64,000 nt of DNA from Dictyostelium discoideum (Eukaryota). The notes under the pieces were generated by a model. The model ran no database searches. It worked only from the letters and a program-made list of their open reading frames with translations, and was not told the DNA's origin. Where the stretch lies: positions 2,528,001 through 2,592,000 of the forward strand of contig CM000153.2 in the NCBI GenBank assembly GCA_000004695.1, given 5' to 3'. Positions within the stretch are counted from its first letter, which is position 1; the number at the start of each line of letters is the position of its first letter. Positions 29,758-49,699 of this stretch are shown piece after piece. The translations under genes and the position numbers were made by a program.

Positions 29758-32700
29758 ATGATCACATCAGGTGGCAACGAAGAAATTGGTGAAAATGAAC
29801 TTGAACCATTATTGGTTAATAATGGGTCAGGGGATTTATCATATTTAAAAAAGTTTGAAAAACAAGAGAATATTGATGAAAATGGAGGAGATGATATGCT
29901 ATTGGTTGATAAAATGGTCGGATACCAATCAATATCATCTAGAGAATTAATTTATTGGTTATCTATACTATTTTCATGTGGAGGTATCTTATTGATATTT
30001 TATTGGTTTGAATCATTTTACATCAACACTCGATTCAAAAAATCTTCAATCTCAAGTGCTAACCACGTTTTAGTTTATTCAAAAGATTCAAGAACTGAAT
30101 TTTGTAAAGTTAATTATTTGGTGGTATATATTTTTTTTTTTTTTTTTTTTTTTTTTACCAATATATTAATAGTATAATTTTTTTTTTTTTTTTTATACTA
30201 ATATATTTTATTGTTGTTATTATTTTAATTTTATTTTTTTTTATTTTTAAAGGAAGAAAATGAAAAATATATAATTTATAGATTTTCAAGATTTTTTTTC
30301 AATGAAAAACTTCAAGAATATGAAAAGACTAAATTAATTAATCAATATGAAAAGATTGATTTTTTAAGATTGGTCGAGAATGGATTAAGTGAAAACAATT
30401 TACAGAGAATGAAACAAAGATTTGGAAGTAATGAAATTAATTTTCCAGTTAAAAATATACCAAGATTATTAATGGAAGAAGTATTACATCCATTCTTTAT
30501 TTTCCAAATTTATAGTGTTTGTTTATGGATAGCAGAAGAGTATTATTATTATGCAGGTGCAATCTTTATAATTGCAACTGTAAGTGCAGTTTTAAGTTTA
30601 AGAGAGATTCGTGGAAATTTATTATCATTACAAAAGATAGCCCATTTTGTATGTCCAGTTAGAGTTGTTAGAAATAATGGTAGAATTGAAACTATTCCCT
30701 CAACAGATTTGGCACCTGGCGATATTATCGAGTTAAAACAAGATTTCATTATGCCATGTGATGCTATCTTATTATCTGGTCAAGCAATTCTTAATGAATC
30801 AATGTTAACAGGTGAATCAATTCCAGTAAATAAATATAGTATCTTAAGTGATGAAGAGATTAAATCATTTAAACAACGTAATAATAATAATCAACAACAA
30901 CAACAAAATATTATTGATATTAGTGATAAAGAAATTAAAGATTTATCAAAAGAAAAACGTTCATTAGTTTTTGGAGGTACAGTTGTTGTTAAACTTTTAT
31001 CATCACCAAGTACAAATGATAGAATTTTATGTATGGTACGTGATACATCATTTCAAACCACCAAAGGTAAACTCATCCTTAGTATTTTATATCCAAAGAA
31101 ATCTCATTTCAAATTCTTTATGGAAAGTTTAAAATTTGTAGGTTTTTTATGCTTTTTAGCTGTTATTGGTTTTTGTATTTCAGTTTGGAAATTAAATTCA
31201 TTAGGTATTGATTTTGGTACTATTGCAATTCGTGCTCTCGATTTAATTACCATTGTTGTTCCACCAGCATTACCAATGGCAATGACAGTAGGTACTGGTT
31301 TTGGTTTATCACGTTTACGTAAAACTAAAGTATTTTGTATTTCACCACCACGTTTAAATATGGCTGGTAAAATTCAAGTATTTTGTTTCGATAAAACTGG
31401 TACTTTAACTGAAGAAGGATTAGATTTATTAGGAATAATTTCAACTTTACAAAGTACAGTAAAACATGTCGATAATATCAATAGTACATCAGAGTATAAA
31501 TTTAATGAACTAAATGATCCAAAGATAACATTCTTTAGTAATACCACTGCAATGTTTAGAGTATTGATGGCATCATGTCATTCTTTAACCGTTATTAATG
31601 GTTCAGTTTCTGGTGATCCATTGGAGATTAAAATTTTTGAATCAACAAATTCAACCATTTTAGATGCTGGTACAATCGGTGGTAGTGGTCAAGTAATTTC
31701 ATTGGTAGCAACAGCATTTTCCTCTCAAGATACTATCTCCTATTTAGAGAATTTCGATTTCCAATCAAAACTTCAAAGAATGAGTGTAATAGTTCAATTA
31801 AAATCTGATAATGCATGCTATAGTCTTGTTAAAGGTAGTCCAGAAATGGTGAAGGGCCTATGTTTCCAACATACAATTCCAAACGATTATGATAGTCAAT
31901 TGGCAATGTATACAGAGAAAGGTTATAGAGTTTTGGCCTGTGCTTACCGTAGTTGGGATCCAACAGTTTTATTCCCAAAAAGAGAACTCCTTCGTAAAGA
32001 ATCAGAATCAAATCTTCATTTCTTAGGTTTTATCATTATGGAGAATAGAGTTAAACCTCAATCACCACCAATCATTCAAAGATTACAAAGTGCAAACATT
32101 AGAACCGTTATGGTAACTGGTGATAATGGTTTAACGGCTACTAGCGTTGCAAAGCAATGTGGTATAATTAAAAGTGATACATTATTATTTATGGGCTTAA
32201 TTCAACCATCATCATCTCCATCACCAACCAATGGTATTGAGGATGAGATTATTTGGGAACCTGTTTCTCAAGATGGTAGAGGTAACATTCATAAATTAGA
32301 TCCAACCACTTTATTATTGGATGAAATGAATCGTGATTATAATTTGATTGTCAGTGGACCTGTTTTCAAACAAATCTACAATCATTATTTAGCAACTGGT
32401 TCACCTAGATTCATTAATATGTTGAGACGTGGTATTGTTTACGCAAGAATGACACCAGATGAAAAACAAAGTTTGATCGAAGAGTTACAACGTATTGGAT
32501 TATATGTTGGTATGTGTGGTGATGGTGCAAATGATTGTGGTGCATTAAAGGCTGCCCATGTTGGTATATCTTTATCAGAGAGTGAAGCATCAATAGCTGC
32601 ACCATTTACATCAACCATCACCGATATCAGTTGTTGTCCAAATTTAATTAAAGAAGGTAGAGCATCATTGGCAGTTTCTTTCAAACTCTTTCAATTTATG

Positions 32701-33551
32701 GGAATATATTCATTGATTCAATTTACTTCGGTAATCTTTTGTTATTTCCATGCAAGTGTTTTGGGTAATTGGCAATATCTTTACCAAGATCTCATAGTCA
32801 TCTTTCCATTGGTAATCTTTTTAGGTATGACTGAACCATGTGAAAAACTTTCTGTCAAACGTCCATCTGGGAGATTGATAAGTTTAAATATGATTGGTTC
32901 ACTATTATCTCATATCACTGTATGCTTTGTATTCTTACTTGTTGTTTTCCATTTGGTTCAAAGCAAATCTTGGTTTGACGAGCCCTTACTCGATCCAGAT
33001 AATATTTTTAATTATATCACTACCTCTCTTTTCATTTTTGGATGCTTCCAATATTCAATTATGTTATTTGTATTTTCATTTGGTAAACCATTTTTAAAAG
33101 CAATTTATACAAATAGTAAGTTTTTTTTTTTAATATCTATTTTTAGTTTACATTATTACATAATTACTAATATAGTTTTCTTTTTTTTTATTTTTTTTTT
33201 TTTTATTTATTTTTAAAAGGATATTTATTTTTAGTTTACATTGTTACATTAATTGCAAATTTAATAATACTATTTGGTGGCTTTGAGAAACTTTATAATT
33301 TCTTACAATTAAGAGTTATCCCAGTTAGTTGGAGAAGTACAATGTTTGGTATGATAATAGGAAATTTAGTTGCCAATTGTCTTATTGAGCTTTCCTTCTA
33401 TTTCTATAAATCTAGATCAAAGAAGAAAAAGATTTTAAATATAAGAATTATTTTCTCAAAGAAAAACAATGAATTACCAAAAGACCCAAGAGTCTTTAAT
33501 ACTAATTCAGTTTCAATTCCAATTTATCAAGATTATTATGATACCTTTTAA
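29758..33551 (+). CDS. P5B-type P-type ATPase (ATP13A2-5-like cation/polyamine transporter), about 1150 aa. Exons: 29758..30120 (donor at 30121 or 30124), 30253..33115, 33220..33551
   Basis: The P-type motifs are present: DKTGTLT (CFDKTGTLTEEGLD), TGES, MVTGDN and GDGANDCGALKAAHVGISL. The P5B-diagnostic PPALP is present in M4 (IVVPPALPMAMTVG). The N-terminal membrane segment typical of P5 pumps is present. Introns run GTGGTA or GTATAT…ttaaAG (30252), phase 0, and GTAAGT (33116)…aaaAG (33219), phase 1. Stop TAA at 33549-33551. Confidence 0.8.
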
Positions 33552-33671: not shown

Positions 33672-34637
33672 TTAAGGATTTTTAATTTTTGAGTTATGGT
33701 TGGATGACAGCTCCCTTGAATAATCGTTAAGTAGGAAGTCTATTTTCTTAAGCATTATGCTTGAGAGGGTTGAGGATTTTTTTAATCTCCATCTGCGCTT
33801 GTTCATCTGTATGTTGGGTAGAGTGAAGGTGGTTGATAGGAAGTTGTGATCTGATAGAGGTATGTCATTAATTTTTGGGGGGATTAGGTTCCTTAAGTAT
33901 AATTGGCTGTAGTTGATTATGCTATTGTTAAGGTATATTCTGTCTAGTCTCCTTTCCAAGATTCTTGTGAGGTTATTGTTTGTGTTGTGTATCGTTCTTG
34001 AGAAGGTGGGTCTTTTATTTAGTTGGTCCATATCCATTAGGTTATTTGAAATTCTGATGGCTTCAATTACTGTGGCCATCTCATCTGGGGATTGTGTTGT
34101 CAAGTTGCCTTGGTCGTCATTTGATGTGTGATTGTCATTGAAGTCTAAACAATTGAAGTCACCTGCTATGATGTCGATGTTTTTATTAGGGTTAGACGTT
34201 AGGTTGTGGTATTGGTTGTTGAAGAGTTTGTTTAGTGTTGAAGCTAGTATTTTTCTTTTATCAGGTTGGGCCGGGGCGTATATGGCCAAGATTCTCGTTG
34301 TGGTATCTTTTATTAGAATGTCTGATATTATTAGTCTACCTTCTATTATGAATATTGGTGAGAGTTTTATGTTTTGGTTGTTGTGGTTTAGTATTCCTAT
34401 TCCGTTGCCTCTGTTGGTTGCGCTAATGATGAAGCCAGGAAATAGCTGGTGTGCTTGTGTTGCGTCAGCATTGAGTTCATTGACTATGGTTAGTGCCAAT
34501 GAGTTTGGGGGGNNNNNNNNNNNNNNNNNNNNNNNNNNNNNNNNNNNNNNNNNNNNNNNNNNNNNNNNNNNNNNNNNNNNNNNNNNNNNNNNNNNNNNNN
34601 NNNNNNNNNNNNTTTTTAAACGCGGCTTTAAATTCAA
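33672..34637 (-). CDS. Retroelement ORF2 N-terminal fragment: apurinic/apyrimidinic (L1-like) endonuclease domain, interrupted by the assembly gap
   Basis: EEP-family signatures are present: …IAGDFNCLDFNDNH… and …PLSDHNFL… (the catalytic D and SDH). Expected reverse-transcriptase motifs downstream are absent. Confidence 0.65.
   Translation of the reverse strand: MNLKPRLKXXXXXXXXXXXXXXXXXXXXXXXXXXXXXXXXXXPPNSLALTIVNELNADATQAHQLFPGFIISATNRGNGIGILNHNNQNIKLSPIFIIEGRLIISDILIKDTTTRILAIYAPAQPDKRKILASTLNKLFNNQYHNLTSNPNKNIDIIAGDFNCLDFNDNHTSNDDQGNLTTQSPDEMATVIEAIRISNNLMDMDQLNKRPTFSRTIHNTNNNLTRILERRLDRIYLNNSIINYSQLYLRNLIPPKINDIPLSDHNFLSTTFTLPNIQMNKRRWRLKKSSTLSSIMLKKIDFLLNDYSRELSSNHNSKIKNP
34513..34612. 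other. Assembly gap (100 N) within the retroelement, preceded by gggggg
   Basis: A direct run of n characters. Confidence 0.95.
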
Positions 34638-34665
34638 TTTAAATCCAATTTAAATCAACTTTTCT

Positions 34666-35088
34666 TTAAATTTGCTTTAAAGGTGCATTTTTCTTTGCTG
34701 TGGATTTAATTAGTTTACATCCTTCATTTTCTATTACCCATTCTATTTCTGTGAGTGATTTATACCAATCGAAATCCGTATACATATTTTTTGGTCTTAG
34801 AGTGGTTATAAATTGTCCTTTTAATTCTGCATCGAACATATTTACAAAATAGATTACTGTACTAATACTGTCTGTGAGAATTTTGAATGTATTATTACTT
34901 TTGATTAAAACATCTTTTTTGTCCAAACTTTTTTCTAAATCTTTTTTTATTTTATCGTCTGGTTCGTGATTGATGTTTATGACGTATTTGAATTGTTTTT
35001 TTTTTAATTGAGTTTTATCCACAATTTCGCTTATTTTTTGTAGGCATTTGTGTTGCTTAATATTTGTGGTGTTGTTTGTGATTTTCAT
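34666..35088 (-). CDS. Retroelement ORF1-like protein (140 aa)
   Basis: An intact ORF (MKITNNTTNIKQHKCLQKISEIVDKTQLKKK…) immediately 5' (on the minus strand) of the endonuclease ORF, inside the TRE-like element. Confidence 0.5.
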   Translation of the reverse strand: MKITNNTTNIKQHKCLQKISEIVDKTQLKKKQFKYVININHEPDDKIKKDLEKSLDKKDVLIKSNNTFKILTDSISTVIYFVNMFDAELKGQFITTLRPKNMYTDFDWYKSLTEIEWVIENEGCKLIKSTAKKNAPLKQI

Positions 35089-35163
35089 TTTATTTTCTTT
35101 CTATTTTTTATATTTTTCTTTAAAAAGTTAAAAATCTGGAAATTTTCTGATTAACTTGGTTCC

Positions 35164-35214
<51 letters not shown>

Positions 35215-35536
35215 TCTTTTTTATATGAAAAATGAAATAATCAAAAAAAGAGATTGTTGTTGTTGTTTGTTTTTTTTCGATCTGATTATTTTTTGCTTTT
35301 TTTTGAAAATTTTGCTACGCAAAATTCTCAAAACGAAACAAATAATAAATTACAATAAAGTAAAAAGATGGCTTTTTAAGATAGTTTATTTATTTATTTA
35401 TTTGTTTTTTAAGTCTTTTTTATATGAAAAATGAAATAATCAAAAAAAGAGATTGTTGTTGTTGTTTGTTTTTTTTCGATCTCAAAATTTATCCCAAGGA
35501 ATTGAAATACGGCGATCATTACAAGAATCCCATAAA

Positions 35537-35610
35537 GCCTTAGTAGCTCAGTTGGTACGAGCGTGAGACTGAAGATCTTAAGGTCGCTGGTTCGATCCCG
35601 GCCTGAGGCA
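35537..35610 (+). tRNA. tRNA-Phe(GAA): tRNA-Phe (anticodon GAA)
   Basis: gccttagtagctcagttggtacgagcgtgagactGAAgatcttaaggtcgctggttcgatcccggcctgaggca. The 7-bp acceptor stem GCCTTAG/CTGAGGC has one G-U pair. The D arm is GCTC…GAGC with AGTTGGTA. The anticodon loop is CTGAAGA. The T arm is GCTGG-TTCGATC-CCGGC, with discriminator A. Internal A and B boxes are present. Confidence 0.9.
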
Positions 35611-35642
35611 AATATTTATCAAACATTCAATAAAAAGCGCAA

Positions 35643-35656
35643 GTTCGATTCTCGGT
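35643..35656 (+). promoter_or_regulatory. External B-box-like element (gcaagTTCGATTCtcgg) about 35 bp downstream of the tRNA, followed by a T9 tract (35664-35672) as a likely Pol III terminator
   Basis: GGTTCGANTC-like match outside the tRNA body. Dictyostelium tRNA genes commonly carry such an extra B box, established knowledge as I recall it. The T-run ggtcacttttttttt follows. Confidence 0.45.
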
Positions 35657-35664
35657 CACTTTTT

Positions 35665-36317
35665 TTTTAAAATGAAAACTGGTCAATATTATAAAAAACA
35701 ACTAAATCATACTCAATCACCAAACCGTGTGAGATACAACACAGCAATACCCAAAGTATTCAAAACATCAACAGCATTTCTCACCAAAAAGGTAGAAACA
35801 CCCTCTTCAGATTCTTCTCAAGATCACTTCCAGGTATCAACCACGAAAGAGACACCAGATGCAAGATCTGTGGCCACCTATTCAGAGACCCTTATTCTCA
35901 CCTCTTCACTCTATGCCAAGATATCCTTGATATTGAAAAAACCATCATATCAACAGTTAAAAAATTATCATTCATCAAAATCCACAGATGGTCAATGGAT
36001 ACCTTAGACATATCAAAATACAACAGAACTGAGAGAATCTTCCCCAATCTCATAGGAATAATAGCACACCAATTATGGAAGATAATCTGTCACAAATTGT
36101 TCAACACTGATGAAAGCAAACCAGAGCCAAAATTCGAACAAAAGGTCATAGAAACAGAATTACTAAATCTCATCGAAACTGAAAAATTCATCACACTAAA
36201 GAAAATCAAACACGACGAAGCAATACTAAAAAACACCAATCAAGATCTTCACAAATACAAATTCAACAAAGCCTGGCAAACCCCAGCAGCTCCGAACCCT
36301 CTTCCAATTTAAGTAGT

Positions 36318-36400
<83 letters not shown>
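35665..36400 (+). mobile_element. 5'-truncated non-LTR retroelement 3' fragment with a ~78-nt poly(A) tail (36323-36400), within about 60-100 bp downstream of tRNA-Phe (TRE3-like position)
   Basis: Two overlapping decayed ORFs (35672..36007 and 35995..36312; …IAHQLWKIICHKLFNTDESKPEPKFEQKV…NKAWQTPAAPNPLPI) end in a long pure A tract. Position downstream of a tRNA and the plus orientation are consistent with the TRE3 class. Confidence 0.5.
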
Positions 36401-36408
<8 letters not shown>

Positions 36409-36696
36409 GTTTAAAAAAATTAATACAATTGAATAATAAAAATAAAACCGTTTAACAAACACCGCCGAAAAGACAAAAGGACATTCCTTGAAGGTCTGAT
36501 CACAGGTAAAAAAAAAAAAAAAAAAACAATCACCAAACCGTGATAACAAAAAAAAAGGCCAAATAAAAGAAAAAAAAATCATTGATCAAATTAAAAAAAA
36601 GATTGGAATAAATTTTATTTTAATAATTTAAGCCATTTAATAGTTGGTATTATAGAAATAATTTAAATGATAATGAAAACAATTTAAAACACCTTT

Positions 36697-36979
36697 AAAT
36701 GTGTATTTGGACATCAATACCAAGGATAAAGATTAATTAAATGAGAATCTGTATTTGTTTGAACCTTGTTACCACTTTGTTGTGTTTGATTAGACATTTG
36801 ATTTAATGATTTGAAACTTCTTTTGCTTGATTTAACATTACCTAAAGATGAAATTGATTCTTTTACATAATGTTTTGTAAAATTAAATTTTTTTTTTTTT
36901 TTTTTTTTTGTTAGTTTTTTTTTTTTTTTTAAAATTCAAAAAAAAAAACTTTTAAAATTTTATTCTTATTGTATAACAT
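36697..36979 (-). pseudogene. HssA/2C/7E-like unit 1, decayed: the splice donor is mutated (ACAATAAG instead of ACAGTAAGT) and an 8-bp deletion frameshifts the C-terminus
   Basis: An alignment to units 2 and 3 shows both lesions. The exon-2 reading ends …SHLINLYPWY*. Confidence 0.55.
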
Positions 36980-37557
36980 TTTGAAATATAAAAGAAATTA
37001 AATTGATATTGAATTTGTATTTGAAATGGAGTAGTTTAGAATTTTTTTAATTTCATATTTATACTTTTTTTTTTCAATTTTTTTTTTTCTCCTTATGTAT
37101 TTTAAATTACTATATTAGATATTCAAATTGAATATAAATCAATAATTTTAAAAAATCGCCTTTAAATAATTTTATTTTTTCAAAAAATCTTCTCCTAAAT
37201 ATTTTTTATTTTTAAAATCTAAAAAAAAAAAGCAGATCCTTGGATTTGTAATCATCTCTATTGGGAAAACAAAACTAATCCCTATATAAGATTGGATAAA
37301 AGAAAAAAAATTTAGTTTAAGATGTAGAACTCACAAATAATTGATTGAAAATAAAAAAAAAAAAAAAAAAAAAAATTTCTATCATGTTTGGTCATATTGG
37401 AAAAAAAGCTAAATCTTTGGCCAAATAAAAAAGAAAAATCTTTGATCAAAAAAAAAGAAATTAAATTTTTTTAAATTTATTTTATAAAAAAATATTGGAT
37501 AAAATTTTATTTAATCAATTAAGACTTTTAGTGTTTTGTATGATACAAAAAACACCT

Positions 37558-37841
37558 TTAAATTTGTAATTGGACATCAATACCAAGGATATTTGCAGAA
37601 AGATCTATTAAATGAGGATTTGTATTAGTTTGAACATTGTTACCACTGTGTTGTGTTTGATTGGATAATTGATTTACTGATTTGAAATTGTTTTGGCTTG
37701 ATTTAACATTACCTAAAGATGAAATTGATTCTTTAAAAATGTTGTTATGTAAAAAAAAAAAGTTTTTTTTTTTTTTTTAATTTTTTTTTTTTAATTATTA
37801 TTTAATTCAAATTTTAAAATTTTAAACTTACTGTATAACAT
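37558..37841 (-). CDS. HssA/2C/7E-family-like small protein (about 60 aa), unit 2. Exons: 37841..37832, 37730..37558
   Basis: Exon 1 is ATGTTATACA followed by a GTAAGT donor. Acceptor tttaaAG (37732/37731), phase 1. Product MLYKSISSLGNVKSSQNNFKSVNQLSNQTQHSGNNVQTNTNPHLIDLSANILGIDVQLQI*. The SISSLGNVKS motif and a C-terminal LGIDVQL resemble the HssA/B-like (sigN) small proteins. The family assignment is from memory. Confidence 0.5.
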
Positions 37842-38568
37842 TTTGAAAAATTAATGGAAAAGTTGGAATTATTGTAAATGTTTTAATTTGAATTGAAGTG
37901 GTTTACAATTATTTTTCATTTCCTATTTATACTCTTTTTTTTTTTTTTTTTCATATTTTTTTTTTTCTCAAAACATTAGTATAATATTATATGCAAATAC
38001 TAAATACTAAATAAATAACATAGATATTCTATTATCAAATCGTTAATTTTTTGTTGATTTTTATTTTAAAAAATCGCCTTAATTTTACAGATTTAAAAAA
38101 TCTAACATAAAAAAAGGCATATATTTGGATTTGTATTCAACTCTTAAGTGATAAAAATTCGGGATTTCGCGCCATGACAAGTTATTTTAATAAATGATAT
38201 ACTCCGCAACAAAGATTACGTAAACAAAAATAAAAAAAATCCATATTTTACACAAGCGTAAAAAAAAAAAAATTACAATTCAATTAGGAATTAATTTTTT
38301 TTTTATAAAAAAACCAACTGCCATCTTCAAAACTTTTAAAACCCAAAAACACTGGGTGATATTTGAAAAAAAAAAAAAAAAAAAAAAAATTGTTCTTTTT
38401 AGCAATAAAAGGAAAAAAAAAAATTGTTCTTTTTAGCAATAAAAGTAAAAAAAAAAATTCTATTTATAAAAAAAATTATTATTGTATAAAAATTTTATTT
38501 AATCATTTAAACCATTTAATGGCAGATACTATATAGAAAAATTTCAAATGATACCATTAAAATCACCT

Positions 38569-38856
38569 TTAAATGTGTAATTGGACATCAATACCAAGGA
38601 TATTTAGAGAAAGATCAATTAAATTAGAATCTGTATTTATTTGAACATTGTTTCCACTTTGTTGTGTTTGATTGGATAGTTGATTTACTGATTTGAAGTT
38701 GTTTTGGCTTGATTTAACATTACCTAAAGATGAAATTGATTCTTTAAAAATATGTTTTTGTAAAAAATATTTTTTTTTTTTTTTTTTTGTTAGTTGTTTT
38801 TTTTTTTTTTTATTATTTAAATCAACTTTTAAAATTTTAAACTTACTGTATAACAT
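38569..38856 (-). CDS. HssA/2C/7E-family-like small protein (about 60 aa), unit 3. Exons: 38856..38847, 38741..38569
   Basis: Same structure as unit 2. Product MLYKSISSLGNVKSSQNNFKSVNQLSNQTQQSGNNVQINTDSNLIDLSLNILGIDVQLHI*. An alternative acceptor at 38725/38724 is also in frame. Confidence 0.5.
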   Translation of the reverse strand: MLYSKFKILKVDLNNKKKKKQLTKKKKKKYFLQKHIFKESISSLGNVKSSQNNFKSVNQLSNQTQQSGNNVQINTDSNLIDLSLNILGIDVQLHI

Positions 38857-39469
38857 TTTGAAAAATTAATGAAAAAATTAAATTGATACTTGTTTTAATT
38901 TGTATTTGAATTGAAGTGGTTTAAAATTATTTTTCATTTCCTATTTATACTCTTTTTTTTTTTTTTAAATTTTTTTTTTTTTTTTTTACTTATATTAGCA
39001 TAAAATAATATCCAAATACCAAATACTGGTAATTAAAACAATTTAGATATTCTATTATAAAATCGAAAATGTTTTGCTTATTTTTTTTTAAAATAATCGC
39101 CTTTAAATAGTTATAATTTTACAGAATTTTTTTACTAAGAAATGGTATAAGATTAAAAAAAAAATTCTAGATCCAGCAAATTATTGATTTTTAAAAAAAA
39201 AAAAAAAAAAAATTTTGATAAATTTTAAAAATAAATACATTAAAATTTAAGCCTTTAAGGTGAAAAGTAATTTATGCTGCGCAAGTGGGTTGTTGTAATA
39301 AAAAAAAATCTTTATTGTTCAAGAGCTAAATCCACTAACAAATAATAAAATAATCTAAAAAAAAAAAAAAAAATCTAAAATAAAAAAATAAATAAAAAAA
39401 AAAAATTCGATGAAATTTTATTTCATTTTATCATTTAAGATATTTAATGTTTTATATTATAGAAATGAT

Positions 39470-39640
39470 TTTAATGATACCATTTAGAGCACCTTTAAAC
39501 TCGTAATCCAATACCAACACCAAGGATATTTGCAGAAAGAAAAATTAAATCTGTTATTTTTTTAATTTGTATTTGAATTGCAGTGGTTAACAATTTTTTA
39601 TTTCCTATTTATATTCTTTTTATTTTTTTTCTCCCTATAT
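39470..39640 (-). pseudogene. HssA/2C/7E-like unit 4 remnant: only the 3'-terminal coding bases fused directly to the promoter block, with an internal deletion
   Basis: …cacctttaaactcgtaatccaataccaacaccaaggatatttgcagaaag… is followed immediately by tttaatttgtatttgaattgcagtggttaacaatttttta tttcctatttatattc. Confidence 0.5.
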
Positions 39641-40201
39641 GTTAGTATAAAATAAAATAGCAAATACCTAATTAATATATTTTACTTAGATATTAACAAA
39701 TCGAGAATTTTATGTCAGATTTTTTTTTTTTTAAAAAAAAAAAAACGCCTTTAAATAAACCACTTGCACCACCTTTTTTTAAATTAATTATTATCAATAA
39801 TCTACAAAAATAAAATAGATAATTAATTAAACAATATTAATAATTAATAAATAATTATTAATATTATTTATGATAAAATACATTTCTTTCAACAAATCCC
39901 AATATCATATGTAATAATAAAAAAAAAAAAAAAAATCTTACTTAAGAACTGATATGCAATACTAAGAATTCAGAAGTCAAATAATAACCAATAACAATAA
40001 TTACCTTAAGATTTGCCAAAACTTCAAATTACTTTCCACAGAAAGTTTACATGTTTTTAAAAAATAAATAAATTTATTACACCCATTTAACTTTTCCTTC
40101 AAAATAAAAATGAGATGACTGAATAAATTTATCATTATATTTTATTTCAATTAATTATCTTATCTTATTTTATTCTATTTTATTTTAGAGTTTTTTTAAA
40201 A

Positions 40202-43160
<2,959 letters not shown>

Positions 43161-43518
43161 ACATTATTGTTACTTTTTAATTGGTGATATTGATATAAAA
43201 AAAAAAAAATAAAAAAATAAAAAAAAAAAATAAAAAAAAAATGAAAATAAAAAATAAAAAATAAAAAAAAAAAATAAAAAAAATAAAAATAGAACAAAGA
43301 AATAATTTTTTTTTTTTTTAATGTTTTTTTTTTTTTATTTATAAATATACATATCCAAAAAAAAGAAGGAAAAAAAATAAATAAAAAAAATAAATAAATA
43401 AATAATTGGTTTAAATTTAAAAACCAATAATTTTTTTTTTTTTGTTTTTTTTTTTTTTTTTTTTTCTTAATTCCCTTTCTATTTCTATCTTCTCACATAT
43501 ACCATTAAAATCGCGTTT

Positions 43519-45153: not shown

Positions 45154-48100
45154 TTATTTTTTTTTATCCATATGAATAGTTTTATTTCTTACAAATAACC
45201 TAAATTTAGCATCAGTCCTGTTCTTATGTATACAAAAAGCAATTGAAATAATTATAACAGCAGCAAAACCAACTGAACCAATAATAATACCAACAAGTTG
45301 AACAGTTGACAAACCAGATTTACTATTGATATTTGAACAAATAGAGTTATTGTTATTTGATGCTGATTTACTATCGATTAATATAGAAAAATCTATATAA
45401 AAAAAAAAAAAAAATTAAAAAAAATAAAAATTTTTTAAAAAAAAAGTTAGAACCCCAAAGTTTTAAAATTCAATAAAAAAAAAATAAAAAAAAAACATAC
45501 CTGGATCAATAATAATTGAATCACTATAATATGGTAATTGAATACCAATATAAGTTTGAGAAGATGCAGCATTTGTAATTAAATTCATTGATGAATCTAA
45601 TAAAATATTTGAAATTGTTTGAACTGTTGAATCTACGATTGCCCTCTTAATGAATCTACCATATAATGAAACAGTATCAACTTGAAGTTTAATATAATTT
45701 GAAATATCATCATCACTATCACTCGTTACACCAAACTCTTTACTTGAACAAATATCATCACTTTTAGAAGCTGATATTGATGCAGACATAATTAATTGTA
45801 ATTGATTTAATTTACTTGAGAAATCATAATTTGAAATATCGATTGTATATTTTATACTTGATGGATTCATTACCAATTGTTGATTTGCAAATTTAATAAT
45901 TGATTTCTCTTTAAACCATTGTAATGTTGCTGTGATTGTAGTTGTTGTATTTGATTTTGGTATGGTGATATTTGTAACATACTGATTTGTATTACTATCA
46001 ATTTGATTATAAACCCATTTTTCAAATGTATATGTATTAACTATATTTGATTGAAAATCTAATTCTCTTAATGAAACTAATGAAATTAATGATTTAAATA
46101 ATATTGTTTCAGTGTTTGTTTCATTATTATTATTACCACCACCACCACCAATTACTGGAATTTCAGTTGATGGATTTGATGTATTTGTACTTGGTTGTGG
46201 TACAATGATGACTTGAGATGTACAATCAATTCCAACCCATGGTGAATAACAAATACAACCATAGTTTTCTTTACAATATCCATTTTTTGAACCACCACAT
46301 TCTGGTGTACCAGCACATGGAATTCTTGGTTTTATTGGTGGTTTTGGTGATGGATCAATAAAATTATAAACTACTGGATAAACTGTAAATTCATTTGATT
46401 GATTAAGATTATTTAAACTTACGACTTTGATAATGAATGGGTTTGTAGTTGGTTTAATATCATTAATTATTATTGATGTTGAATATGATATAGTTGGTGT
46501 TGAAACTTGTGGAAATACTAAATTACCATCTAAATATTTTATATGAACTTTATAATCAGTTTGAAAATGTTTACCAATAATTAATAATTTACCACCACTT
46601 GATGTAATAATTGAAACTTTTGAAATTAATAACTTTTTAATTAATGGAATATTTGACATATAATAAGAGTTTGGTGAAATACTCATTAATCTCTCACTTG
46701 AGTAACCACCAAAATAACCACCATTATTAATTAAACCATAAACACTAAATAGTATATCAGATTGGTACCCGAATCCATAAGGAAGATCAATTTGGCATTT
46801 ATAATCAATTGTATTATTATTAACAATAGTTTTAATTTCTGAAGTATTAAAAATACCTTCAAGTTGTTTCGAAGTAGCATAAACTATTGGTAATTGATCA
46901 GATTTCAATCCACTTTCTGGATCAGTTACTTGAAACTCGAATAATAAAGTTTGACTATTATCTTGAGATGAGACTACTCTTGAAGATTGGAATGATAATA
47001 ATACTGGTGGTGTTTGATCTTGATAATCATCACAATAAATTGTTATCTTATTAATAGTTGGGTCACCAAAATAATTAATGAAAGGATTCGAAGGTGCATC
47101 AAAACTTTTAGTCATATAAAATTCACATGAATAACCTTGTTTATCAAACAATTCAATTTCAATAATTGAATATGATTGAGTTGCACAAATATCTGGAATT
47201 GTTACAATGATATCATGCTGTCCTAAAAATTCATTACCACTAATAATTGTATTATTTGATAAATTAATAGTATATCTTGAGCCATCCATATCACCTCTTA
47301 CAATAACATGACCATAATCAAATCCATTAATTTCATCTTGAATTGTAACTGACCATTTAATTTGATTTGGATTTTGTGATATACTTTTATCTATTGTTTT
47401 AAAAATTGGTCCATATTGATCAAATCCTTTTTTTAAAAAAAATAAATAATTAGTATTTTTTTTAAAAAAAATAAATAAATAAATAATATTAAAAAACTTA
47501 CTTGATGAAGTTACATATAATTGATTCGATGCTGGAAGTAATTGACTATAAAAGTTTGTATAAATACTTCCTAGTTTAATATTATAATTAAAGTAACCAG
47601 TTTTAACATTTGCAGGTACTCTAAATTCAACTTGAAACAATTTAATTGTTGAATTCCATTTTGCAAAACATTGTTTAGATATTCTTCCATTTAATAATTT
47701 AAAATTGTTTAAAAAAACAACCTCTAGCTCAACATTAGTTTCTGTAACATCTGTAAAATTAAAGTACATTATATTATCAATTGATTTGTTTGTGGTGTTA
47801 AGATTATTATATAAAAATGATACATTTTGAATGAGGTATATATTATATATATTAAATGCAGTTGCATCATAAACAAATTTTGGGGGAATTGAAGAATAGT
47901 AACTTGGTTGACTTGTATAATATGGTGAACTTTTTCCACTTGAACCACGAATTTCAATTGTACCTACACCTGAATTTGTATTTTCGTAAACAAATTCATA
48001 CATTGATGGACCATTAATACCATCACCTTCAACTAATGATCCATATCCATATGGTTTATTATTAATTGTAATAATCCCATTTACAAAATCATCACTAGGT

Positions 48101-49699
48101 GCAATTCTAATTAAATAACAATTTGAATCTAAAATAATCATTTCATAATGTTTCATTGTTGGTGTCGCATCATTTAAAGATACAAGATCTGGAGGTAGAT
48201 TAAGAGGGTTTAAACTTGTCATACCATTATATGGAGTTATAACAAATGTATTCCAAGAACTACTCATTAAACTTAATAAGAATGCTACCTTAAATGAATA
48301 TTTATAGTTTGTACCACTCTCAAATCCAAATGGCCATGGTAAAACTGATTGTATATTATCGATTGAAAAACTATAATCAATAATATCGAAATAAATGGAT
48401 GAGTTAAAATATACTGTAAAATATGTCATATTATTAAATGTACCCAATGTAGTTTTAAGAATGTATATCGTTCCACTTGGAAAATAAGTTTCACTTGATA
48501 TTGCTTTATTAATTTAATATATTAGTAAAATATACAAAATAAAAAAATAAATATATAAAAATACTTACGAATAGATGATAATATTGTAGAGTTAATTTCA
48601 ACTAATGAGGAGCCATATTGTGAAACTACTGCAATTCTCTCATTTGTACCAAAATTTTGTAATGCTCCAAAATACACAGTTCCATTATCATTTTGATAGA
48701 AAGGTAACGTTAAAATACCTCCACTTGCTCGATATAAGAAAATTAGAGGATTAATACCTGTATAATTTGCAGTTATTGAAATAACATTTGAAGCAAAGTA
48801 TGAAAATTTTTGAAACATAGGACTGTCTGGGTAATACATAACCTGATTATCTGAATTACTTGAATCTAATAATTTTTTTTTTTTTTTAATTTATTAATAT
48901 GTGTATGTTAATTCTGATAATAATATTAAATGATAATAATATTTACAATAAAGATAAGATGATGGCACTGTAAAATTAAATTGGTAATCAATAAAATAAA
49001 TTGAACAGGTAACATCTTGATTGAAAATTGTGATATTTAAGGGTCTTAAGATAATATATGTTGCTTTATTTGAATCTGAATTAACTAAAACTGAATAACC
49101 ATTTGTTGATATAATTAAATTATTTGATTTATACTTTAAACCGCTTAATATAACATATCCACTATATGCTGTAGGATCAAGATCTGCTAATATATTTGGA
49201 ATATACTTTATTTTTATTGAATTCATATCATATACTAAATTAAATAAATTAATATTTATTTTTATTTTTTTTTTTTCTTATTTTTTTTTTTTTTTTTTTC
49301 CTTAAACATACATTCGCAATTAAAATTAATAATTGTTGACGCATTAATTAAACCTAAATTTGAAGTTAAAGAAATTGAATTTTGACCATTTGGTACATCT
49401 GAGACTAAAATTTTATCAATTTGAGTTATTTGATCATTAAAAACCTTTAAACTTGTTATGGATAATGAACTGTCACTTGAAATTGTAAAAAGGCCACCAG
49501 TACCATTAGATATCACAGAACGAATAAAGAAATCAAAATTACAAGTATTTTTATTTGAATCTATTGGATATTTATTGTATGTCAAAAATGATGGATCTGA
49601 TACATCTTTTACTTCAATTGATTGACCATTTAATAAATTAATTAATATAAATTGAAAAAATAATAAATAAATAATATATTTATTATTATCTCTCTTCAT
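45154..49699 (-). CDS. Large type I transmembrane glycoprotein with IPT/TIG-like repeats and one EGF-like module (Tgr/LagC-family-like), about 1404 aa. Exons: 49699..49312, 49234..48947, 48865..48569, 48503..45501, 45392..45154
   Basis: Signal peptide (MKRDNNKYIIYLLFFQFILINLLNGQS). IPT-like motifs are present (…VSIITSSGGKLLIIGKHF…). An EGF-like module is present (CAGTPECGGSKNGYCKENYGCICYSPWVGIDCTSQ). A C-terminal TM helix (LVGIIIGSVGFAAVIIISIAFCI) is followed by a short basic tail. All four introns keep phase 1 with GTATGT/GTAAAT/GTAAGT donors and AG acceptors. Total 4215 nt (1405 codons including stop). Confidence 0.7.

Follow-up and report, generated by a model that had tools for sequence, protein, structure and literature searches.

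We examined a 64,000-nucleotide stretch of chromosome 4 of the Dictyostelium discoideum genome (assembly GCA_000004695.1, contig CM000153.2, positions 2,528,001 to 2,592,000; hereafter the window, with position 1 as its first letter), in which the minus strand carries a tandem array of four copies, units U1 to U4, of a very small two-exon gene. The likeliest reading of the locus is two stand-alone genes for 60-residue peptides (U2 and U3) plus two dead copies (U1 and U4), and the gene is probably a divergent, cysteine-free offshoot of the HssA/B-related (hssA/2C/7E, sigN; PF05710) small-protein family. The main value of this result is an annotation correction: DDB_G0284877 and a newer gene model fuse the intact gene U2 to the adjoining pseudogene U1, and the intact paralogue U3 has no product on record. 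The array comprises the following features:

36548..39790, minus strand: four-unit tandem array U1-U4 including the conserved upstream regions (self-BLAST, repeat finder, multiple alignments)
36698..36979, minus strand: U1, pseudogene (alignments; same lesions in a second assembly)
37558..37841, minus strand: U2, intact gene with a 60-residue product (conserved structure; same peptide in a second assembly)
38569..38856, minus strand: U3, intact gene with a 60-residue product, in no annotation seen
39358..39790, minus strand: U4, relic (self-BLAST, alignments)

Self-BLAST, the repeat finder and the alignments agreed on this minus-strand, four-unit arrangement, which an earlier note on this DNA had claimed. 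The repeat cores identified by self-BLAST lay in direct orientation at 36548-37259 (U1), 37404-38144 (U2), 38438-39125 (U3) and 39358-39757 (U4), with unit-versus-unit identities of 70-81% across 190-760 bp (expectation value E, 1e-19 to 1e-176) and start-to-start distances of ~871, 1011 and 926 bp, in a window with a G+C content of ~22%. Beyond U1-U4, no extra array copies were found within the 64-kb window. The sequence of the first exon, ATGTTATACA, was found exactly three times in the window, at 36979-36970, 37841-37832 and 38856-38847, always on the minus strand and in register in U1-U3; GTAAGT comes next in U2 and U3, whereas U1 has ATAAGA there. A second D. discoideum assembly, at chromosome level (GCA_054883475.1, CM142510.1; 99.5% identity to the window over 11.5 kb), also has the four units, with no difference in the peptides or in the U1 lesions, so that the copy number, a point raised in the earlier note, is not an assembly artefact. 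The array likely arose when one very small gene was duplicated locally in tandem. Two intact copies beside two decayed ones are ordinary birth-and-death turnover, and the birth-and-death array that had been proposed fits what we found; the locus, whose 3.2 kb hold one pair of intact copies, one copy with point mutations and one relic left by deletion, offers a compact, datable example of this process.

The exon-intron structures of the two intact units are as follows:

37841-37558, minus strand: U2, with exon 1 ATGTTATACA at 37841-37832, intron at 37831-37731 (101 nt, GTAAGT...AAAG) and exon 2 at 37730-37558 (173 nt including the stop codon)
38856-38569, minus strand: U3, with exon 1 at 38856-38847, intron at 38846-38742 (105 nt, GTAAGT...AAAG) and exon 2 at 38741-38569 (173 nt)

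In both units the 10-nt coding exon specifies Met-Leu-Tyr plus one base, the AT-rich intron is in phase 1, and exon 2 opens 2 nt before SISSLGNVKS, with the acceptor context ...AAAG/AATCAATTTCATC kept across units. The spliced products, each 60 residues long and rich in Ser, Asn and Gln, are MLYKSISSLGNVKSSQNNFKSVNQLSNQTQHSGNNVQTNTNPHLIDLSANILGIDVQLQI for U2 and MLYKSISSLGNVKSSQNNFKSVNQLSNQTQQSGNNVQINTDSNLIDLSLNILGIDVQLHI for U3. The predicted architecture of a 10-nt exon, a GTAAGT donor and a 173-nt second exon encoding a peptide of about 60 residues could thus be read out in U2 and U3, and both proved intact as claimed, each giving a complete unit from TATA box to AATAAA. The U3 intron is also open in frame, and unspliced U3 therefore forms a 95-residue open reading frame (ORF; MLYSKFKILKVDLNNKKKKKQL...SISSLGNV...); as the U2 intron is not open, the open U3 intron is probably due to chance.

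The lesions attributed to the other two units were likewise borne out by alignment. U1 has kept its ATG and exon 1 (36979-36970) and an intact acceptor (36860/36859); its donor has changed from GTAAGT to ATAAGA (36969-36964), and 8 bp (TCTGCAAA) are missing near 36729, so that the frame ends in ...LINLYPWY at a stop codon at 36716-36714. The original C-terminal codons persist out of frame, down to 36698. What is left of U4 is the upstream region with its TATA box (39613-39607), which runs at ~39550/39540 directly into the final ~50 nt of exon 2 and the 3′ flank (39535-39368). Missing from the unit is the equivalent of U3 38625-38872 (~250 bp), which covers the distal 5′ untranslated region, exon 1 with the intron, and ~117 nt of exon 2.

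We searched for homologues among 5.8 billion proteins and, exhaustively with HMMER, among 1.84 billion cluster representatives (profile search threshold E ≤ 0.001). These searches found only three relatives, namely one D. discoideum cluster and two D. firmibasis proteins of 58 and 57 residues; metagenome contigs, which were scanned as well, yielded no relative. The D. firmibasis proteins, RB653_001377 (58 residues) and RB653_007237 (57 residues), are both annotated as hypothetical. Their genes have a first exon of ATGTTATACA or ATGTTATTCA (pattern ATGTTAT(A/T)CA), followed by a GTAAGA donor, an intron of 97 or 90 nt and the junction AG/AATC(A/T)ATTTCATC. They resemble U2 and U3 in the MLY/FK start on a 10-nt exon, in protein identity (62-68%), in the C-terminal motif and in the TATA block, and differ in being stand-alone single copies at two chromosomal sites, whereas U1-U4 form a tandem array. 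Conservation in another dictyostelid, which had been named as a check, was thus found, with the same exon structure. In blastn and tblastx comparisons of the window with the two D. firmibasis loci, the match was confined to the gene itself.

Sequence comparisons among the intact copies revealed constraint on the reading frame. Exon 2 was more conserved than the intron, both between U2 and U3 (92% vs 80% identity) and across species (70-76% vs 59-69%), and the exon-2 lengths of the intact copies (173, 167 and 164 nt) differ only by multiples of 3. The ratio of non-synonymous to synonymous divergence (dN/dS) was 0.29-0.40 overall and 0.36 for U2 against D. firmibasis, at a synonymous divergence (dS) of ~0.5-0.7 against the D. 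firmibasis loci. Synonymous change exceeded non-synonymous change against D. firmibasis (P = 0.007 and 0.001); for U2 against U3 alone, dN/dS was not significantly different from 1 (P = 0.10). These results indicate that the 57-60-residue ORF is under purifying selection across species. Furthermore, the D. firmibasis annotation came from MAKER, which was given the D. discoideum proteome together with genome-guided Trinity transcripts (PMC11193728). As the D. discoideum reference protein starts with MKKKKKKK, the MLYK and MLFK starts of the D. firmibasis models did not come from protein homology; the models were probably built on transcripts, and this speaks for real coding genes.

Regulatory and processing signals accompany the units, as listed here:

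37057..37063, minus strand: U1 TATA box
37925..37931, minus strand: U2 TATA box TATAAAT, 84-90 nt 5′ of the ATG, within the conserved block GAGTATAAATAGGAAATGAAAAATAATTGTAAACCACTTCAATTCAAA
38943..38949, minus strand: U3 TATA box
37506..37511, minus strand: U2 AATAAA, putative polyadenylation signal ~47 nt past the stop codon
38494..38499, minus strand: U3 AATAAA
37157..37162, 38075-38080, 39098-39103 and 39746-39751, minus strand: AAGGCG(AT) motif, one per unit

The conserved TATA promoter block that had been described, GTATAAATAGGAAATGAAAAATAATTGTAAACCACTTCAATTCAAA, aligned in all four units, with TATAAAT in each unit 84-93 nt 5′ of the ATG, and the TATA-containing block of U2 is also conserved at both D. 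firmibasis loci. An equivalent of the U2 AATAAA, TTAAATAAAATTT, is present in U1 and U3, and across U1, U2 and U3 AATAAA lies 45-95 nt 3′ of the stop codon. Further upstream, ~150-250 nt 5′ of the ATG, the motifs AAGG(C/G)GAT, TCGATTT.ATAATAGA.TATCTAA and GTATTT(G/A)GTATTTG are common to the units of D. discoideum and the two loci of D. firmibasis; all three are candidate cis-regulatory elements, and the first two together make up a candidate cis-regulatory block. A scan for sigma-70 promoters and terminators showed no enrichment, and its bacterial model is inapplicable to a eukaryote.

We then compared the gene with the PF05710 family, named the HssA/B-related domain in a 2026 paper (PMC13487327) and the only Pfam family to which the peptides match. 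Against a gathering cut-off of 21.4 bits (model length 90 positions), the scores were 16.9 bits for U2, 19.8 for U3, 21.7 for a conceptual U1 product, and 22.0 and 17.2 for D. firmibasis P0002 and P0003. Peptide residue 5 aligned to profile position 6 in every case, as expected if the first exon is shorter than usual by one codon. Among 96 sigN/hssA genes, the first coding exon is 13 nt long in 89 and 10 nt in 3, with introns of 38-147 nt and an arrangement in tandem clusters (PMC2257962); a very short first exon is a family trait (PMC6198379). As a canonical comparator, limited to two sequences, we used a PF05710 gene pair from D. dimigraforme (68 bits). One gene of this pair, the partner of the 68-bit member, reads ATGACAATCATGG/GTAAAT...AG/CT TCA ATC TCT TCA ATT GGA AAT, with a 13-nt exon 1 and a phase-1 intron; the units read ATGTTATACA/GTAAGT...AG/AA TCA ATT TCA TCT TTA GGT AAT, with the same junction 2 nt before SISS(I/L)GN. 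Through hhalign analysis, four subfamily peptides aligned to the two D. dimigraforme sequences with a probability of 91.8% (E = 7e-7, 39% identity, 44 columns), at a score of 35.7 that none of 400 column shuffles reached (mean ~9.6, maximum 23.3). The N-terminal module and the gene architecture are homologous to those of PF05710 genes, and the alignment further suggests that ...NNVQ...P.L.....NILG corresponds to ...NSIQCGCDGPTLGNTVGNLVG.

The D. dimigraforme pair (GCA_054859025.1, 9400-10730 of its locus) consists of divergently oriented sigN-like genes, one with an apparent frameshift in exon 2 and the other with a 14-nt rather than 13-nt exon 1 (a run of five T), which would break the frame; these faults could reflect homopolymer assembly error or a pseudogene. 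In the annotated D. dimigraforme protein P0005 (105 residues), the first 23 residues are foreign to the spliced family product and replace the short spliced exon 1.

Comparison with individual family members placed the units within this range of variation in some features and outside it in others. SigN Group 1/2 and HssA (PF05710 'Coiled') share with U2 and U3 two exons with a tiny exon 1, a phase-1 intron of ~100 nt, tandem clustering, restriction to Dictyostelium and ~45 alignable N-terminal residues. The units have a 10-nt exon 1, a single 101- or 105-nt intron and a 60-residue product, encoded in four tandem units and within the family's size range (<120 residues); exon 1 in SigN/HssA is mostly 13 nt rather than 10, and the product is 87-99 rather than 60 residues long. 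SigN1 has four cysteines, is described as 'cysteine-knot-like' and carries a Gly/Val-rich predicted transmembrane segment, whereas U2 and U3 lack these and have an amphipathic C-terminus, LIDLSANILGIDVQLQI, instead. In the D. dimigraforme member there are 4 Cys and 14 Gly, with a maximal 15-residue hydropathy of 2.15; the subfamily peptides have no Cys, 2-3 Gly and no hydrophobic segment. The Ser/Cys/Gly-rich, four-cysteine composition with a Gly/Val-rich hydrophobic C-terminus is therefore not found in U2 and U3, and, lacking Cys and a Gly-rich hydrophobic tail, they are filed as a divergent offshoot and not as canonical members.

Closest in format are the members with a 10-nt first exon: sigN176 (chromosome 4, 10//178 nt, 62 residues), sigN183 (chromosome 3, 10//160, 56 residues) and sigN132 (chromosome 2, 10//220, 76 residues) (PMC2257962, Additional file 1, Vicente et al. 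2008). They are like U2 and U3 in exon 1, in their short products and in introns of 85-102 nt, and unlike them in intron length, exon length and product size, the comparison being one of these figures alone; the exhaustive profile search returned no D. discoideum protein like sigN176, sigN183 or sigN132 at its threshold. The cup-cell hssA-like clade (DDB_G0276687/beiE) is likewise a tight clade within the family with a very short exon 1, and its late expression in cup cells is documented as extremely high (PMC6198379), whereas U2 and U3 are known here from sequence alone.

We also considered, and provisionally rejected as the same family, the separate prestalk-specific cluster of 57-59-residue proteins in the Mef2A paper (DDB_G0283501-G0283519; PMC3640940), which are similar in size to U2 and U3 and are said to be unlike hssA: the published primer encodes KSLQSITS and not KSISSLGN, and the profile search gave no match.

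The HssA/2C/7E label given in the earlier note thus stood in part: the N-terminal SISS(L/I)GNVKS module, the phase-1 intron position and the hhalign result bear it out, and the sub-cut-off Pfam scores and the missing Cys/Gly tail do not. What is new is a short, Cys-free branch of a known family of ~100 genes; the picture of the family's mechanism is unchanged. It is conceivable, at a tentative level, that the MLYK-SISSLGNVKS...NILGIDVQL peptides form a distinct clade, so far seen in D. discoideum and D. firmibasis only, that kept the HssA N-terminal module and intron and had its Cys/Gly-rich hydrophobic tail replaced by a short beta-hairpin of amphipathic character. Provided that they are expressed and functional, such peptides would be natural minimal versions of the family and could serve to separate the role of the N-terminal module from that of the tail, in a family of ~100 genes that has so far resisted genetics through redundancy. 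The Dictyostelium 'UPF0512' small proteins also start with ...FKSISSISN.

Two stand-alone genes are not what annotation currently records at this locus. The D. discoideum cluster has two members, KAM9942729 (100 residues) and the AX4 protein DDB_G0284877/Q54P19 (104 residues), and the former corresponds to one feature that we rebuilt from the window sequence:

36714..37841, minus strand: chimeric gene model of the second assembly

This model joins U2 exon 1 and U2 exon 2 as far as 37584, across a 724-nt 'intron' (37583-36860, GTATTG donor), to U1 exon 2, a joining that gives KAM9942729 exactly. DDB_G0284877 has the same fusion junction, as read from the protein alone, and starts with MKKKKKKK. 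In an exact look-up in the protein collection, neither the U2 nor the U3 60-residue peptide was present; the second assembly has no gene called in the U3 region, and no U3 product occurs in the searched databases. We consider it unlikely that the chimera (100-104 residues) is the real gene, produced by read-through from the U2 promoter with U1 as a captured exon. Such a transcript would be spliced from within U2 exon 2 to the U1 acceptor (AAAAG), which is usable though the U1 donor is lost, and would encode a protein with two SISSLGNVKS modules; its ANIL/E/SISS junction appears in two independent annotations, its 100-residue product can be reproduced exactly from the window, and it clears the Pfam cut-off (25.9-28.2 bits). 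This Pfam pass, however, is merely the sum of two N-terminal modules, and the splice requires a GTATTG donor, which is weak, and an intron of 724 nt, against family introns of 38-147 nt. The chimera also discards the ILGIDVQL.I tail that U2, U3 and the two D. firmibasis genes all keep, and ends in the frameshifted LYPWY, whereas the D. firmibasis homologues stand alone as single 57-58-residue units; the AX4 start, MKKKKKKK, is implausible and resembles an ab initio artefact. The two-gene reading is preferred because the chimeric model drops the conserved C-terminus and takes up the frameshifted tail of U1, and because no U3 product is recorded. With models fused in this manner, the locus may be mis-modelled in expression tables and in counts for the ~100-gene hssA/2C/7E family.

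Several observations weigh against an expressed family member that acts as a peptide. Both intact D. discoideum peptides score under the PF05710 cut-off, the matches span only profile positions 3/6-37 of 90 (the first third), and short, low-complexity sequences make all similarity statistics fragile. U2 and U3 have 0 Cys, 3 Gly and a maximal 15-residue hydropathy of 1.3-1.4. No synteny of either D. firmibasis locus with the window was detected within ±10 kb (blastn, tblastx), and a search of the literature and supplements found no D. discoideum expression or splice-junction evidence for the units, and no mention of DDB_G0284877. An AlphaFold2 prediction on the exon-2 alignment was of low confidence (predicted local distance difference test score 51, predicted template modelling score 0.17), which makes a C-terminal beta-hairpin only a hint. 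Finally, a frame-shifted hssA construct retained suppressor activity (PMC6198379), so that protein-level function is not to be assumed for the family.

Some of these points would also suit an array in which all four units are non-functional, with U2 and U3 as young duplicates of a dying gene that are not yet disabled. Half of the array is visibly dead, U3 is in no annotation seen, no D. discoideum expression evidence was found, and the U2-vs-U3 comparison shows no significant departure of dN/dS from 1. We nevertheless regard a wholly dead array as improbable: two D. firmibasis loci retain the ORF with its splice sites, the TATA block and the upstream motifs at a dS of ~0.5-0.7, with dN/dS of ~0.3, the indels among intact copies are solely in frame, the U2 and U3 peptides are identical in the second D. 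discoideum assembly, and the D. firmibasis models are probably transcript-based. A functional RNA rather than a peptide, as suggested for hssA on account of its active frame-shifted construct and in keeping here with a very short, low-complexity and mostly disordered predicted peptide, is very improbable, given that divergence at synonymous sites is 2.5-3.4 times that at non-synonymous sites, that the frame is kept across species, that the intron is conserved less than the exon and that an Rfam scan found no RNA family in the array (a tRNA was its sole match).

On the preferred reading of two coding genes and two dead copies, an ancestral tiny gene would have been duplicated locally, with U1 disabled by donor loss and the 8-bp frameshift and U4 by the ~250-bp internal deletion. 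Each intact unit would be expressed from its TATA promoter 5′ of the ATG, through the 10-nt exon, the phase-1 intron and the 173-nt exon 2, to the AATAAA after the stop codon. The family hallmark is expression induced during development, in prestalk or in cup cells and with a requirement for SrfA or GBF, and by analogy with the family (PMC2257962, PMC6198379) U2 and U3 would be transcribed in multicellular development, redundantly with other members. For the family itself, no molecular function has been established; deletion of 13 sigN genes gave no phenotype, and antibodies to Group 2 proteins broke up mounds.

Hydropathy analysis of the U2 and U3 peptides found no signal peptide, N-terminal hydrophobic segment or transmembrane segment. 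The absence of an N-terminal hydrophobic segment leaves 'secreted' unsupported, and the earlier description of the products as secreted-peptide-sized is therefore not retained. The product would instead be a small cytosolic developmental peptide, predicted to be largely disordered, whose amphipathic C-terminus, L-x-x-LSxNILG-x-x-x-x-L-x-I, may form a beta-hairpin. By analogy with the family, the conserved N-terminal module might carry a family-wide property and the variable C-terminus the specific one; at low confidence, the hairpin tail might serve self-association or partner binding, as opposed to membrane or matrix association via a Gly/Cys-rich tail.

The array is bordered by a tRNA gene within retroelement-like sequence on one side and by a long ORF on the other, among the following features:

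30370-33213, plus strand: P-type cation ATPase (E1-E2_ATPase, Hydrolase, Cation_ATPase_N)
33675-34637, minus strand: weak Exo_endo_phos (AP-endonuclease) match in an ORF upstream of tRNA-Phe
34600-34613: run of N, an assembly gap beside the retroelement-like ORF
34669-35088, minus strand: 140-residue ORF upstream of tRNA-Phe
35537-35610, plus strand: tRNA-Phe, adjoining the array on one side
35672-36312, plus strand: two short ORFs downstream of tRNA-Phe
36320-36400: ~80-nt poly(A) run ending a retroelement-like fragment
40205-43297, minus strand: 1031-codon ORF on the other side of the array, with no Pfam match
45466-48447, minus strand: ComC-like protein (DUF7035, DUF7034, ComC_SSD)

Retroelement-like sequence flanks tRNA-Phe on both sides (33675-36400), and we take these fragments to resemble the tRNA-targeted TRE5/TRE3 insertion pattern of Dictyostelium as a candidate identity. 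At the gap, ~5 kb of additional sequence is present in the second D. discoideum assembly, with a gene for a 1047-residue RVT_1 (reverse transcriptase) protein in it; the gap thus seems to hide a non-long-terminal-repeat retrotransposon, or the insertion is polymorphic between strains. A ComC_SSD gene lies close to the copy at one D. firmibasis locus too, but this locus showed no tblastx similarity to the window at the thresholds used, and the shared neighbour is accordingly not evidence of synteny. Within the 1031-codon ORF, positions 40453-40931 form a dense direct repeat of 9/12-nt periodicity with 22 overlapping copies, probably a coding amino-acid repeat of the type common in Dictyostelium.

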